This document shows, piece by piece, positions 34,568 to 37,851 of a stretch of DNA of 64,000 nucleotides; within the stretch, counting starts at the first letter, position 1; every line of letters begins with the position of its first letter. The notes under the pieces are model-generated. The model saw nothing but the letters and a program-made list of their open reading frames with translations, was not told where the DNA came from and searched no databases. A program made the translations under genes and the position numbers. This DNA is from Candidatus Heimdallarchaeota archaeon (GTDB lineage: Archaea; Asgardarchaeota; Heimdallarchaeia; JABLTI01): NCBI GenBank assembly GCA_019056785.1, contig DXJV01000073.1:1416-65415 (forward strand), written 5' to 3'.

Positions 34568-35050
34568 ATGGCTGTAATTACTACTAACACGGTCTCTATC
34601 CGATGTGTCGGGCACAACGGCCGTGCAACGTTGAAAGAAGCCGTATCTGAAGGCTGGCGCATGTGTCGCGTGTGTTTATCATTCATTTGCCCAAAATGTA
34701 TCAAAGAGTTCGATTTGAAGATGGGTGGGGTCTGCCCTTCATTCATTTTTGGTATTGAAAAACATCAGCTGAGCCTGGCCCCCATTCCAGTTGAAAAAGT
34801 GCTTGTATTTGTAGAGGAAAATAAAACCGAGGGGATAACAGCTGGGCTGCTAGAAACGCTCTTCTATGAAGATGAACAGATGGGGTTTATACCATTTTAT
34901 GCAACGATGGACGACAAGCCTAAGAAAGATGGCAGTATAGAAGACGACGCAGAGCCACCAAAAATCCAAGAGGAAATTTGGGCGTCTTTTGGTTTTGTAA
35001 TGACGAAACGTAGGAGAGGAAAATTCATCACCTGGGAAAAAATCGGTTGA
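34568..35050 (+). CDS. Small Cys/His-rich zinc-finger protein (candidate RING-like / E3-like component)
   Basis: IRCVGHNGRATLKEAVSEGWRMCRVCLSFICPKCIKEFDLKMGGVCPS corresponds to C-x2-H-x16-C-x2-C-x4-C-x2-C-x11-C. It sits directly upstream of the JAMM/E1/Ubl/E2 genes. The fourth ligand pair is unclear. Confidence 0.35.
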   Translation: MAVITTNTVSIRCVGHNGRATLKEAVSEGWRMCRVCLSFICPKCIKEFDLKMGGVCPSFIFGIEKHQLSLAPIPVEKVLVFVEENKTEGITAGLLETLFYEDEQMGFIPFYATMDDKPKKDGSIEDDAEPPKIQEEIWASFGFVMTKRRRGKFITWEKIG

Positions 35051-35068
35051 AAAAAGGAGAAAAGTTAC

Positions 35069-35695
35069 ATGCCATCGAATAATACAAACGACACGAAAAC
35101 TTCTAAACAACAATCCCTTACTGAAACCGTTAGTGAAGAGAAAAAGACCCTCGAAGGAGAGCTAGAACACGAGTTTTCTTCTGAAAAAGAAAAGGAGGAA
35201 GGCACCGATAATAAGGAGGTCTATCATGTCTATATTCTCCAGAGGGTTGTCCAAGAAACCAAACGGATCTGTAAATTAGCAGACCCAAAGGAAGCACTCG
35301 GTATTTTGCTTGGGTATAAATATACGTATAAAGGAAAGCGATATGTCAAAGTTGTCGATTGGGTAACAGGACACGCATATCAAAGTCATGCATATGCCGA
35401 ATTCACACCAAAAGGCGTTCAACAATATACTTCCATTATTCAGGAAAAATATGGCGATTGTGAAACAAGGCCTAGAATTGTCGGCATTTTTCATTCTCAC
35501 CCTTTTGGTACCAACCCTAGTTTTTCTAGTACAGATTACGGCACATTCCTCAACTTTCCTTATGATGCTGAATACAATGTCTTTGTTTTAATAGACCCCA
35601 GAGCAAAGTACTACAAAAGTTATATTGTTGTTAAAGATGATGAAGGGCGAAAAGGCTTGCAAGAAGTTGACTGGGTAGAATATACAGTAAAATAG
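35069..35695 (+). CDS. JAB1/MPN/Mov34 (JAMM) metalloprotease, Rpn11-like deubiquitinase candidate
   Basis: Upstream Glu (KEALGILLG) plus HSHPFGTNPSFSSTD, i.e. the canonical E...HxHx7Sx2D JAMM motif. AAGGAG ribosome-binding site before the ATG. Confidence 0.8.
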   Translation: MPSNNTNDTKTSKQQSLTETVSEEKKTLEGELEHEFSSEKEKEEGTDNKEVYHVYILQRVVQETKRICKLADPKEALGILLGYKYTYKGKRYVKVVDWVTGHAYQSHAYAEFTPKGVQQYTSIIQEKYGDCETRPRIVGIFHSHPFGTNPSFSSTDYGTFLNFPYDAEYNVFVLIDPRAKYYKSYIVVKDDEGRKGLQEVDWVEYTVK

Positions 35696-35717
35696 GGAAA
35701 AATCGCGCGGTGAAAAA

Positions 35718-36587
35718 ATGACTTCGAACAAAAAAAGTGAGCGGCTCAAAGTCAGCTTTTACGAAGAAGATATTGATGATAGAACAAGGAGGTATTTCGG
35801 TCAAGAGAATTTGGCGAAAATTAAGAGTAGCACTGTATTATGTGTTGGTGCCGGAGCCGTAGGTAACGAAGTCTGTAAAAATCTTGGTATGTTAGGTGTT
35901 GGGCACATTCGTCTGGTTGATTTTGATGTCGTAAACAAGTCAAATATAAATCGCTGTATCTTTTTTAGGCCGGAAGATCATAAGAAAATCTCTAAAGTGG
36001 CAGCCGTAGCGAAACGCTTGCCTGAGCTTGCACCTAATATAAAAATTACCCCATATAATGTCCGGATAGAAGAAGCACCTCAAGAAGTTTACAAAGCGGA
36101 CCTTATTATTATGGCCTTAGATAATGATTATGCACGATATATGTTGAATGCTGGGAATTTAATGCAAGAACACCCCCTCCCTATGATCAATGGTGCAATG
36201 GGCCGGTCCTTTATAGAAGTACAAATCTACTACCCAGGACAAACTGCTTGCGCCGTTTGTTTATGGAGTGAAGCCTATTATCAACAAGTAATGAACCATC
36301 AGGTCATCTTGAAATGCGACAAATTCTTTATCGAAACGCTTCCAAAATTCCCAATGATAAGCACTCTAACATCAATTGTCGGCGGTATAATGGCTGTCGA
36401 AGCCACTAAAATACTCATAAGTAAAGACACGAGAAAAACCTATTCAGATATTACCAAAGGCCAAGAACCAAATTTCGGTAAAATGATTAGATATGACTTG
36501 CGCAAACATGACTTTACCTTTGCGACCATCCAACCTAATCCAAAGTGTGTGGATGTTACCTGCCGCGCTCGAAGGCGCCAGAGCTAA
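35718..36587 (+). CDS. E1-like ubiquitin-activating enzyme (ThiF/MoeB/Uba family)
   Basis: Nucleotide loop VLCVGAGAVGNEVCKNL, DFDVVNKSNINRC, and two Cys pairs (CAVC ... C-x4-C) forming the ThiF-type zinc site. Confidence 0.85.
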   Translation: MTSNKKSERLKVSFYEEDIDDRTRRYFGQENLAKIKSSTVLCVGAGAVGNEVCKNLGMLGVGHIRLVDFDVVNKSNINRCIFFRPEDHKKISKVAAVAKRLPELAPNIKITPYNVRIEEAPQEVYKADLIIMALDNDYARYMLNAGNLMQEHPLPMINGAMGRSFIEVQIYYPGQTACAVCLWSEAYYQQVMNHQVILKCDKFFIETLPKFPMISTLTSIVGGIMAVEATKILISKDTRKTYSDITKGQEPNFGKMIRYDLRKHDFTFATIQPNPKCVDVTCRARRRQS

Positions 36588-36701
36588 GAAACTGTCAGTA
36601 TCGACAAGAGCATTCGAGGCATTGGTGCTCTGTTAAAGATGCTGAGAAAAAAGCATCAATAGAAAAAAGAAAAAATCTACAAAAAAAGGTGACCGAGTAA
36701 C

Positions 36702-37019
36702 ATGTCTGAAGAAGAAACCACCTGGCGAGAAATAATCGTTGATGTCGAGCCACGCCAAAAAGAATTCCGTGTGGCTGTAGAGGAAGAATCCACCGTTGAT
36801 GAAGTCGTGAAAACGTTAGTGCAACGTTGTGTAGACGAAGGTGTGGATATCACTAAATGGGCAAAAGAGAAAGTTGGCCAGCCAAATGTCAGTTTTGTGC
36901 TCATGCGAAAAGCCTTTGGCAACACTGCCCTCGCACCAGCAGCAACATTTGGCTCCCTCGAACCTCCATTGGAGAATAATGAACGATTCAAATTAGATGC
37001 TTGTGCACAAGTCGGCTAG
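36702..37019 (+). CDS. Ubiquitin-like beta-grasp protein candidate ending in a single C-terminal Gly
   Basis: 105 aa between the E1 and E2 genes. The predicted strand-strand-helix pattern (REIIVDVEP / KEFRVAVEE / TVDEVVKTLVQRCVDEG) fits a beta-grasp. The protein ends ...FKLDACAQVG-stop. Context-driven call. Confidence 0.5.
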   Translation: MSEEETTWREIIVDVEPRQKEFRVAVEEESTVDEVVKTLVQRCVDEGVDITKWAKEKVGQPNVSFVLMRKAFGNTALAPAATFGSLEPPLENNERFKLDACAQVG

Positions 37020-37104
37020 TGCCAATTTTTTCTTTTCCCTCTCTTGTAATTTCTTAAAGAAGAGAAAAAAACAGCAGGTAAAAAGGTGAATCGTCATTTC
37101 ACGA

Positions 37105-37851
37105 ATGAACTTCCCACCAACAATAGTAAATGCAAGAATCGCAGAATCCATCCATGTTTTTTATGAAACAATGGAGGAATTCTTCAAGAAAAAGGGCTGG
37201 AAATGGGCGCCCTATAAACGAACTGGTGATAAGTGGATACAAGAGGATTATAGCATTGAAGTGAGAACGAAATATGCCGACGGCGCCTATAAAGAGCTTG
37301 TTTTTACATTGCGTCGAACCCCAGGAATTGTAGGACAATCATCTGGAAGTAAAATCAATATCGGCGATAAACACAAAGTTTCCATTCTCCTTCCACGAGA
37401 GTATCCTGCAAATTTGGCGCACATTAAAATGCGGCTCTTAACCCCTCTCTGGCACCCACGAATTTCCATGGGACGGGGTGGCGATGCCTGCATCACCGTT
37501 AATGGGGAAGTTGATAGGATCCTCATCGATCTTATTTACCATATTCTTATGGACCCAAAACGCATCCGCCCACCAAAACTTTACCCAAAAGAAGATTCCG
37601 GTTTGAATGGTATAGCAATGCGCTGGTTTGAGAAAGACGCAGCAAATATTCATAACTATATGCTCAGTCAATGGGACAAATTACATGAGAAAGCTTCTCT
37701 TAAGGAAAGCGGGGGAATACGAATTATAGGTTCAAAGAAAGAAGCAGTGGAACTTCAGAAAGATAAGCAAGCTGTTCGAATAATTACACATAAACCCGAA
37801 GAGAAAGAGAAGAAACCAAAACAGAAAAAAGGGGGCATTAGAATAATTTGA
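37105..37851 (+). CDS. E2-like ubiquitin-conjugating enzyme (UBC fold) with a repeat-bearing basic C-terminal tail
   Basis: ILLPREYPANLAHIKMRLLTPLWHPRISMGRGGDACITV matches the UBC core (YP..pP...f.t.i.HPN....G.iC) with HPR in place of HPN. Candidate catalytic Cys codon at 37489..37491. Confidence 0.7.
   Translation: MNFPPTIVNARIAESIHVFYETMEEFFKKKGWKWAPYKRTGDKWIQEDYSIEVRTKYADGAYKELVFTLRRTPGIVGQSSGSKINIGDKHKVSILLPREYPANLAHIKMRLLTPLWHPRISMGRGGDACITVNGEVDRILIDLIYHILMDPKRIRPPKLYPKEDSGLNGIAMRWFEKDAANIHNYMLSQWDKLHEKASLKESGGIRIIGSKKEAVELQKDKQAVRIITHKPEEKEKKPKQKKGGIRII

Follow-up and report, generated by a model that had tools for sequence, protein, structure and literature searches.

The window analysed here, a 64,000-nucleotide (nt) stretch of contig DXJV01000073.1 from a Candidatus Heimdallarchaeota archaeon, carries a cluster of nine same-strand genes (30125-38174), the 3' half of which is a conjugation cassette for a ubiquitin-like protein (Ubl). 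An earlier note on this DNA had claimed five plus-strand open reading frames (ORFs) at 34568-37851 and read them as a eukaryote-style Ubl conjugation cassette with a dedicated E2, an E1 and a JAMM protease. All five ORFs are present at these positions and the cassette is upheld by family, profile and fold evidence. The unit to which it belongs is, however, larger than five genes, as it also includes an SMC6-like ATPase gene and two small genes upstream and a gene for a protein of 108 amino acids (aa) downstream. The nine genes are:

30125-33148, plus strand: SMC-family ATPase, 1007 aa, predicted to be Smc6-like (Pfam SMC_N 2.5e-21); opens the conserved cluster.
33108-33914, plus strand: 268-aa protein in the kleisin position; identified by conserved position only.
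33911-34540, plus strand: 209-aa protein in the kite position; conserved position and a weak winged-helix signal.
34568-35050, plus strand: Zn160, 160 aa, with a predicted two-zinc (eight-ligand) domain at residues 13-66 (34604-34765) and a conserved C-terminal domain.
35069-35695, plus strand: JAMM/MPN+ metalloprotease (Prok-JAB), 208 aa, with its active-site motif at residues 142-156 (35492-35536).
35718-36587, plus strand: single-domain E1 of ThiF fold (Pfam ThiF), 289 aa, with the candidate catalytic Cys200 codon at 36315-36317.
36702-37019, plus strand: Ubl, a 105-aa beta-grasp by predicted structure, ending Val104-Gly105-stop, with the Gly codon at 37014-37016.
37105-37851, plus strand: E2 of UBC fold, 248 aa, with H117-P-R119 at 37453-37461 and Cys129 at 37489-37491.
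37848-38174, plus strand: orf108, 108 aa, a small, conserved and mostly disordered protein recognized by its motifs.

The five cassette ORFs are separated by 18-114 nt. The 268-aa ORF overlaps the SMC gene by 41 nt, and its true start may lie after the overlap, while overlaps of 4 nt place the start of the 209-aa gene on the stop of the 268-aa gene and the start of orf108 on the stop of E2. Ubl and E2 fall below every curated family threshold and are labelled hypothetical by all sources; homologues of each cassette protein are conserved in many independent assemblies, which speaks against chance ORFs. None of the nine cluster genes has a second copy within the window, where two lyases are the sole paralogue pair.

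The gene order of the cluster recurs in more than 15 independent contigs from two domains of life. About ten Heimdall-type metagenome-assembled genomes (MAGs) share the order SMC6-like ATPase, 268-aa protein, 209-aa protein, Zn160, JAMM, E1, Ubl and E2; it is complete in the loci that we number L001, L005-L008, L011 and L037, and L038 shows it from the 3' end of the SMC gene on. Across the Heimdall loci, whether from genomes or from metagenome contigs, E2 is followed in identical order by orf108 and an aromatic lyase gene. Compared with the window proteins, those of these loci are 59-68% (SMC), 50-58% (268-aa protein), 62-78% (JAMM) and 86-90% (Ubl) identical. The same eight-gene order is found in a clade of 65-71% GC whose MAGs are binned as Planctomycetota (the high-GC loci), with identities to the window that range from 30-32% (SMC) up to 53% (Ubl). 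Five high-GC loci hold the full order (L021 from the genome collection; L041, L044, L049 and L051 from metagenomes), the metagenomic L050 holds it from the putative kleisin gene onward, and L057 and L020 are the two ends of one cluster on two contigs of a single Planctomycetota-binned MAG; L040, L043, L047 and L053 are partial copies. In L021 the JAMM and E1 genes overlap by 26 nt. Every E1-containing locus that reaches far enough upstream has SMC genes, and wherever the flank is long enough, in Heimdall as in high-GC loci, the SMC gene occupies one and the same place.

The SMC protein that opens the cluster scores 99 bits against the canonical prokaryotic SMC model, the cut-off of which is 729. 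A single-sequence search of the PDB returned yeast Smc6 as the top match over its full length (1e-14), and a profile built from seven cluster SMCs matched Smc6 with 113 bits (7.6e-32). On full-length chains the same profile gave 1e-12 for Smc4, 5e-8 for Smc1 and 1.5e-6 for Smc3, and its score stayed at or below 53 bits for every Smc1-4 and prokaryotic Smc chain, those of full length among them. Since the profile scores Smc6 far above other SMCs, we assign the cluster protein, as a sequence-based prediction, to the SMC5/6 type and specifically call it Smc6-like. The second gene keeps its position at identities of 50-58% (Heimdall loci), 31-35% (high-GC loci) and 26% (L059, a locus of a divergent Heimdall MAG), and its 268-aa product has no match in Pfam, NCBIfam or PADLOC. 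The 209-aa protein is 38% identical to its high-GC version and 30% to that of L059; a sub-threshold MarR_2 match at residues 151-177 is its sole family hint, and a profile search of the PDB with it was empty. Neither protein has a sequence match to the ScpA, ScpB, Nse or MAGE families or to PDB chains. From the position of their genes they would be a putative kleisin and a putative kite, respectively. TACK and Asgard archaea are reported to carry a second, SMC5/6-related operon composed of SMC, kleisin and kite genes; the study describing it holds that the RING of Nse1 and the SUMO ligase Nse2 were added in eukaryotes, and it makes no mention of Ubl genes beside the archaeal SMC5/6-related operons (10.1101/2024.01.07.573240).

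The zinc protein Zn160 follows directly. Its ligands are spaced C13-x2-H16-x16-C33-x2-C36-x4-C41-x2-C44-x11-C56-x9-H66, and all eight positions are invariant between the Heimdall sequences and the 38%-identical high-GC version. A 25%-identical paralogue and the 30%-identical orthologue of L059 retain them as well, with Cys at position 16, the second ligand. Eight conserved ligands are the signature of what is predicted to be a two-zinc domain, and their spacing would be compatible with a cross-brace finger of RING, PHD or FYVE type. The window Zn160 has no Pfam family match and its single-sequence PDB search was empty, the high-GC (bacterial) orthologue gives sub-threshold matches only (FYVE_2 0.033, zf-RING_4 0.13), and the Zn160 profile gave a non-significant match to a Tetrahymena Teb1-related protein in the PDB (0.045). 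The Zn-finger label of the earlier note thus holds in that this is a zinc protein; the pattern is that of a two-zinc domain, however, and the gene travels with the SMC genes and not with the enzymes. We consider Zn160 a likely candidate for a RING-like E3 or adaptor.

Most Zn160 sequences end in [IV]G, and we considered whether the C-terminal half could be a second Ubl domain. This was rejected, as profile-profile comparison of that half with the Ubl family gave no match (probability 0.1%), and the divergent L059 orthologue ends in ...QIE and not in [IV]G. Two Heimdall loci (L011, 15370-15621; L038, 13332-13526) carry, about 7-9 kb downstream of the cluster, a distant paralogue of the zinc domain (24-25% identity). 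The L011 copy, which is the one aligned, keeps the eight ligand positions, with Cys at the second. The window itself has no Zn160-domain paralogue.

The first enzyme of the cassette is the JAMM protease, in which the residues of the motif read earlier (E...HSHPx7SSTD) are exactly as described: Glu75, H142-S-H144-P, seven residues and S153-S-T-D156, a spacing one residue longer than the canonical H-x-H-x7-S-x2-D. The protein matches Pfam Prok-JAB above the cut-off (E=1e-6) and begins with an acidic N-terminal extension of about 45 residues. Its best PDB sequence match, a weak one (E=0.009), is the Caldiarchaeum Rpn11-like deubiquitinase 6fjv, and in PADLOC it obtains generic JAB matches only.

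The E1 is a protein with one ThiF domain (residues 26-277; Pfam ThiF 2.2e-44). A ThiF nucleotide loop (G44-A-G-A-V-G49) and a four-Cys zinc site are both present, as had been claimed, although the second Cys pair is CxxxxC and not CxxC (C178-x2-C181 and C277-x4-C282). In the PDB it comes closest to the active adenylation domains of UBA1 and UBA6 (4e-20), followed by MoeB (2e-15), ThiF (5e-13) and UBA5 (3e-12). The protein falls below all curated NCBIfam cut-offs, where ThiF (104 bits) and MoeB (96 bits) score highest, and it reaches 77 bits against the model for the SAMP-activating UbaA, the cut-off of which is 450. All eight Cys are conserved in nine Heimdall sequences, and C200 and both Cys pairs are also found in the 44%-identical high-GC (bacterial) E1. 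Cys200 sits 19 residues past the first CxxC, at the relative position where we take the catalytic Cys of small E1s to lie. Its position and conservation make it a candidate catalytic Cys. A search of the PDB with the C-terminal half alone, done to map the catalytic Cys on UBA5 or MoeB, returned no matches.

The 105-aa ORF between E1 and E2, which had been put forward as a beta-grasp candidate, is confidently predicted to be one, so that the refuting outcome named in the earlier note, a fold other than beta-grasp, did not occur. The AlphaFold2 model computed from the family alignment has a predicted local distance difference test (pLDDT) score of 84.5 and the topology beta-beta-alpha-alpha-beta-beta. 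It is closest to ubiquitin and SUMO folds, as Foldseek against the PDB ranks ubiquitin, Caldiarchaeum ubiquitin, SUMO1 and Hub1 at the top (probability 1.0; template modelling (TM) score on the target 0.7-0.8), and the SUMO1 structures that it matches are complexes with SUMO-interacting motifs (SIMs). At the sequence level the Ubl has no significant curated family match in Pfam or NCBIfam; Pfam in particular gives no ubiquitin-family, ThiS or MoaD match and has DUF7054 as its best entry at 0.012. The high-GC version shows sub-threshold matches to Rad60-SLD, YukD and Ubiquitin_4. The protein does end in a single Gly before the stop codon (...AQVG-stop), as read earlier. The terminal VG is invariant in 14 Ubl relatives, several of which carry 1-3 extra residues past the Gly. 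From the exposed Gly it had been proposed that the JAMM protease serves chiefly as a deconjugase. This is reasonable as far as it goes; because relatives carry such tails or Ubl-E2 fusions, precursor processing would also be in the repertoire of the Ubl family.

As evidenced by its predicted structure, the E2-like protein has a UBC fold. The AlphaFold2 model (predicted TM score 0.71; pLDDT 82-96 over residues 1-120 and below 50 from residue 203) finds exclusively eukaryotic E2s among its top 50 Foldseek matches, including Cdc34, Ubc9, Ube2N and Ube2G2, at E ~1e-4. The Pfam UQ_con match (0.008) is below the cut-off, a profile search of the PDB returned E2 enzymes only (best 1.8e-4), and in a single-sequence PDB search all matches at E<=0.2 are E2s, with two weak exceptions (0.21 and 0.29) by E<=0.3. 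The family is rare: exhaustive HMMER searching of 1.84 billion representative proteins recovered only 54 clusters (50% identity) at E<=0.001. The pattern HPR....G..C given in the earlier note is right for the HPR and the Cys and approximate in its spacing, which is HPR-x9-C (H117-P-R119 to Cys129) and thus two residues longer than the canonical HPN-x4-G-x2-C. The codon at 37489-37491, which had been named as that of the catalytic Cys, encodes Cys129, and 24 diverse E2 relatives show next to no variation at H117, P118, R119 and C129.

Two observations concern the wider E2 family. In P0105, a member from the representative-protein search, HPY replaces HPR and the catalytic Cys is changed to Ala, which suggests an inactive, UEV-like offshoot. 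The 5.97-Mb Planctomycetota scaffold JBGLNR010000001.1 (L022, L027) carries two separate E2-family genes without a detectable adjoining Ubl, E1 or JAMM gene, one of them with an orf108-like motif downstream; E2-family genes thus also occur alone.

The disordered tail of E2 holds three SIM-like motifs, IRII at 205-208, VRII at 224-227 and IRII at 245-248. Tails across the family contain 1-3 copies in which a basic stretch precedes [VI]-x-[IL]-[LI], usually followed by Asp or Glu. A SIM has been defined as a four-residue core with at least three V, L or I, an acidic flank and a location in a disordered region (PMC12751080), and the predicted tail motifs fit this definition. The adjoining orf108 has no family match in Pfam, NCBIfam or PADLOC. 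A 117-aa counterpart is called at the equivalent place in another Heimdall MAG, the Heimdall loci share the motifs TIKI[IL]SE[KR]D and PPPN[YF]xPxFxCxxH, and an equivalent pair (EVIAAED and PPPDLQPQFRCVVH) occurs downstream of E2 in the Planctomycete loci L025, L027 and L047. Judged by these motifs, orf108 is a real gene.

Overall, the cluster is an SMC module (SMC, perhaps kleisin, perhaps kite, and Zn160) juxtaposed with a Ubl module (JAMM, E1, Ubl, E2 and orf108). L059 has a Smc6-like gene, two small genes and a Zn160 orthologue followed by transporter genes, with no adjacent JAMM, E1, Ubl or E2. Because Zn160 stays beside the SMC trio in this locus without the enzymes, it belongs with the SMC module, and it would be the natural bridge between the two modules. 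In some organisms that have a Ubl-E2 pair only, the pair is a true in-frame fusion with the conserved Gly at the junction (P0081 and P0095).

A related arrangement was seen in six Planctomycetota/Brocadiia MAGs (species-level), which we compared with the one-frame fusions P0081 and P0095. Here the Ubl ORF continues beyond the conserved VVG for about 50 residues, which align with the N-terminal helix of E2, and then stops; the remainder of E2 is encoded in the -1 frame. In each of the six, exactly ten A in a row form the junction (L012, 8002-8011; L013, 2276-2285; L014, 8001-8010; L015, 8002-8011; L016, 5416-5425; L017, 686-695), and five of these loci contain no other A/T homopolymer of ten or more. 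The run is a candidate site of programmed -1 frameshifting or transcriptional slippage that may yield a short Ubl-helix product together with the full Ubl-E2 fusion.

The cassette very probably encodes a functional E1-E2-Ubl-JAMM conjugation pathway. We think it probable that this is a complete, reversible pathway of thioester type that works with the upstream SMC5/6-like complex, and for the part of this reading which has the pathway act on or through the Smc6-like complex we lean towards its being correct. In the mechanism that we propose, the 105-aa Ubl would be made with its reactive Gly105 already exposed. The single-domain E1 would adenylate Gly105 and then probably carry the Ubl as a thioester on Cys200, from where it would pass to Cys129 of the UBC-fold E2. 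E2 would transfer it to lysines of targets, aided by Zn160 as a RING-like E3 or adaptor docked on the SMC-kleisin-kite complex; likely targets would be subunits of the SMC complex or proteins met on DNA. The JAMM protease would remove the tag and, where the Ubl is tailed or fused to E2, also mature the precursor. Finally, orf108 and the disordered E2 tail may bind the Ubl non-covalently, by beta-strand addition, through their SIM-like motifs ([IV]-[RK]-I-[IL]). The exposed Gly, activation, transfer to E2 and removal are proposed from conserved residues and folds; transfer to lysines with the help of Zn160 and the non-covalent binding are proposed from gene linkage and motif resemblance.

Several points weigh against this reading. 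Adjacency of genes is no proof of common function, and many Planctomycetota as well as the Heimdall MAG L023 have the Ubl-E2 pair only, with no E1, JAMM, Zn160 or SMC gene within 8-9 kb, so the Ubl-E2 module can be encoded away from SMC genes. Zn160 and the 268-aa and 209-aa proteins are without significant family or PDB sequence matches, and the ligand pattern of Zn160 is neither that of a canonical RING (C3HC4) nor that of Nse1 (C4HC3). The E1 has no ubiquitin-fold domain for E2 recruitment, and it is therefore possible that E2 attacks the adenylate directly, without an E1 thioester; by analogy, Bub E1s without a catalytic Cys are reported to work in this way (PMC11601596). The known distribution, over only one Heimdall clade and some Planctomycetota, implies horizontal transfer. 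Transfer weakens the claim of ancestry to the eukaryotic system, and the limited distribution advises caution before the eukaryotic arrangement is traced directly back to this cluster.

Transfer between archaea and bacteria would also be expected of an anti-plasmid or anti-virus defence system in which a Wadjet- or Lamassu-like SMC sensor or motor is combined with Bil-, Bub- or CBASS-like Ubl conjugation. We regard this as an unlikely explanation of the cluster. The SMC does match the Lamassu LmuB model at 1.8e-20 and JetC weakly, but the 72 bits reached with LmuB do not exceed what generic SMC models give. All matches to the Wadjet and Lamassu models stay at the generic SMC level, and the profile favours Smc6. 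That eukaryotic Smc5/6 restricts extrachromosomal DNA we count in favour of defence. Bacterial Ubl systems, moreover, are mostly defence-associated (PMC11601596). The cluster nevertheless contains no nuclease or other effector gene, PADLOC has no match for its E2, Ubl, Zn160, 268-aa and 209-aa proteins, and a scan of the viral contigs in IMG/VR found no cluster locus. Its flanks are also stable within each clade and of housekeeping character: aromatic lyases follow in the Heimdall loci, the same 190-aa ORF lies downstream in three high-GC loci, and the window holds core chromosomal genes such as those for aEF-2, histidyl-tRNA synthetase (HisRS), a Glx-tRNA synthetase and UvrB, and is not a defence island.

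It is rather unlikely, in our judgement, that the cassette, as an Asgard ubiquitin-type system of the Caldiarchaeum kind, serves general purposes (protein turnover or ESCRT-type sorting) and that the SMC genes lie beside it without meaning. The idea draws on the Caldiarchaeum cascade, with which the five component types agree (PMC5654768) and to which the nearest solved JAMM relative, an Rpn11 homologue, belongs, and it would readily accommodate the stand-alone Ubl-E2 pairs away from any SMC gene. Accidental adjacency, however, is hard to square with the linkage across domains, since the SMC genes are kept at 30-53% identity in Archaea and Bacteria and in every testable E1 locus, and the zinc protein stays with the SMC trio even where the enzymes are missing. 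The Ubl, in addition, is not a ubiquitin-family sequence and ends in VG, not GG, and neither ESCRT nor proteasome genes lie around the cluster in the window.

A sulfur-carrier system, of either MoaD/ThiS plus MoeB/ThiF or SAMP/UbaA kind, with the beta-grasp protein mainly as thiocarboxylate donor and an E2-like protein that does not conjugate, is very improbable. In its favour, the E1 is small, single-domain and MoeB-like, has ThiF and MoeB as its top NCBIfam scores and also matches the UbaA model. These scores, however, are far below the family cut-offs, and the PDB favours UBA1 and UBA6 over MoeB and ThiF. Sulfur transfer also leaves no task for a dedicated JAMM or for an E2 whose HPR...Cys is nearly invariant, and the Ubl, without ThiS or MoaD match and ending in VG rather than GG, has no moaE, thiG or thiS-type genes nearby in the window.

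Some further features of the window lie outside the cluster. The rubredoxin-bearing lyase that stands directly downstream of the cluster in all Heimdall loci is, in the window, a 575-aa aromatic (histidine/phenylalanine) ammonia-lyase (38321-40048, plus strand; Pfam Lyase_aromatic 9e-182) with a rubredoxin domain (1.4e-12) inserted at residues 277-324. A second lyase paralogue without the insert is encoded at 40486-42009. Between the two, Rfam reports a tRNA over 110 nt (40165-40274, plus strand, 48.9 bits) where ARAGORN finds no tRNA in the window; this is probably an intron-containing archaeal tRNA gene. A 574-aa protein (8529-10253, plus strand) with an N-terminal small GTPase domain of Ras/Roc/Arf type (Pfam Ras 1.3e-38) is a typical Asgard 'eukaryotic signature' protein, in keeping with the Heimdall origin of the window. 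A 543-aa protein (44961-46592, plus strand) combines a long coiled coil, with weak ATG16 and crescentin-rod matches, and a C-terminal winged helix (MarR_2/HTH_24, sub-threshold).

The Ubl cascade as a type is already known from Caldiarchaeum, Asgard archaea and the bacterial Bil, Bub and CBASS systems, and a further prokaryotic E1-E2-Ubl system would by itself be a modest find. Three things set the cluster apart, one of which is its linkage to an SMC5/6-type complex. To our knowledge, the only SMC complexes with built-in ubiquitin and SUMO ligases are those of eukaryotic Smc5/6. We found no description of an SMC-plus-Ubl cluster in prokaryotes in the searchable, non-subscription literature. 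As far as we can tell, novelty lies in the Ubl/E2 family, in the SIM-like features and, above all, in the coupling to an SMC5/6-type operon, which is conserved in both Archaea and Bacteria. Ubl and E2 make up a family of their own, which annotation does not reveal. The set is compact, with nine genes, and could be reconstituted from recombinant proteins, which would make it testable for what reason SMC5/6-type complexes are linked with Ubl conjugation and how the modifier affects the complex. Further experimental handles are the SIM-like motifs paired with a SUMO-like fold outside eukaryotes and the candidate frameshift leading to a Ubl-E2 fusion in Planctomycetes.

A comparison with characterized systems shows that the cluster belongs to none of the Caldiarchaeum-type, Bil, Bub or CBASS families. 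The remark in the earlier note on the type of system was apt in pointing to an Asgard host, which is of Heimdall type, and not in its suggestion of the Caldiarchaeum-type, Bil or Bub families. With CBASS Cap2/Cap3 the differences are plain, as there is no E1-E2 fusion and no CD-NTase among the neighbouring genes of the window, and the PADLOC E1-E2 models match the E1 only weakly and generically (<=67 bits) over the adenylation domain. A system of UFM1/UBA5/UFC1 kind was also considered and rejected, because UBA5 (3e-12) ranks behind UBA1 (4e-20) and MoeB (2e-15), E2 keeps the HPR, and UFC1 is not among the 50 best structural matches of E2. UFM1 also ends in VG, which is the sole feature in common.

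The Bil system (BilA Ubl, BilB E2, BilC JAMM, BilD E1) likewise encodes Ubl, E2, JAMM and E1 together, and conjugation to lysine via thioesters, as in Bil, would be expected here. The bacterial Ubl-deubiquitinase complex 8tyx, which we take to be a Bil complex, is found at rank 50 among the structural matches of the Ubl. In contrast to the window E1, with its 289 aa and single ThiF domain, the Bil E1 is multi-domain, and Bil has neither an E3-like zinc protein nor SMC genes.

Type I Bub (6E.1) consists of BubAB, in which Ubl is fused to E2, BubCD, in which JAB is fused to E1 and which cleaves BubAB after Gly, and the DUF6527 protease BubE (PMC11601596). The cluster shares with it the four activities, a small single-domain E1, JAB beside E1 and Ubl beside E2, and relatives of this family encode Ubl-E2 fusions with a junction Gly, like BubAB. 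In the window, however, the genes are four separate, unfused ORFs. Bub forms oxyesters on Ser and its E1 lacks a catalytic Cys, whereas E2 Cys129 and E1 Cys200 are conserved here, which would point to a different chemistry. DUF6527 matches none of the nine proteins in Pfam up to an E value of 1, no Bub protein is among the sequence or fold matches, which are to eukaryotic E1s and E2s instead, and the cluster has no defence-type regulator or defence context.

The Caldiarchaeum cascade has been reconstituted from Ub, E1, E2, a small RING protein and an Rpn11-like JAMM (PMC5654768). As in the Caldiarchaeum and Asgard operons, five component kinds are found in one prokaryotic gene cluster, here in an Asgard host, including a ThiF-type E1 and a UBC-fold E2 with its catalytic Cys. 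The nearest solved relative of JAMM is the Caldiarchaeum Rpn11 homologue, and Caldiarchaeum ubiquitin is the second-best fold match of the Ubl. The proposed pathway would work like this cascade. For the modifier the fold alone is in common, however, since the Ubl has no detectable ubiquitin sequence similarity, is 105 aa long with an extra helix, and ends in VG-stop where the Caldiarchaeum modifier has GG and a propeptide. E2 is below the UQ_con threshold and carries a SIM-like tail, and Zn160 differs in its ligand pattern and has a large C-terminal domain that is conserved. The gene order also differs, and the cluster, which is embedded in an SMC6-like operon, is shared with Planctomycetota.

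The closest functional analogy would be eukaryotic Smc5/6 with Nse1 and Nse2, in which Nse1 is a variant-RING (C4HC3) ubiquitin ligase that has the kleisin Nse4 as its substrate and Nse2 is an SP-RING SUMO ligase (PMC8750328). The two systems differ in that the coupling described here is known from genomic linkage and not from a demonstrated physical complex, and in that the zinc pattern, C-(H/C)-C-C-C-C-C-H, lies in a separate gene, while the C4HC3 of Nse1 is fused to the kite. A single SMC gene, presumably giving a homodimer, stands in place of the Smc5/Smc6 heterodimer, and E1, E2, Ubl and protease are all supplied by the cluster itself, whereas eukaryotes use the cell-wide ubiquitin and SUMO machinery. 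Nevertheless, both combine a Smc6-like ATPase, two partner genes, a zinc-finger protein and Ubl-conjugation enzymes. The gene in the kite position followed by the zinc-domain gene mirrors the winged helices followed by the RING in Nse1. A further parallel is the likeness of the Ubl model to SUMO1 as seen in SIM complexes, together with the SIM-like motifs found in orf108 and the E2 tail. We put forward, tentatively and as a possibility that we would not call probable, that the cluster is a prokaryotic counterpart, and perhaps a relative of the antecedent, of eukaryotic Smc5/6-Nse1/Nse2, with Zn160 as the RING-like subunit of an SMC5/6-type complex that has gained, in two lineages, a SUMO-like modifier of its own along with E1, E2, protease and SIM-bearing partners. 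If this were true, the coupling of SMC5/6 to Ubl conjugation, regarded as a eukaryotic innovation (10.1101/2024.01.07.573240), would have arisen before eukaryotes or independently of them.

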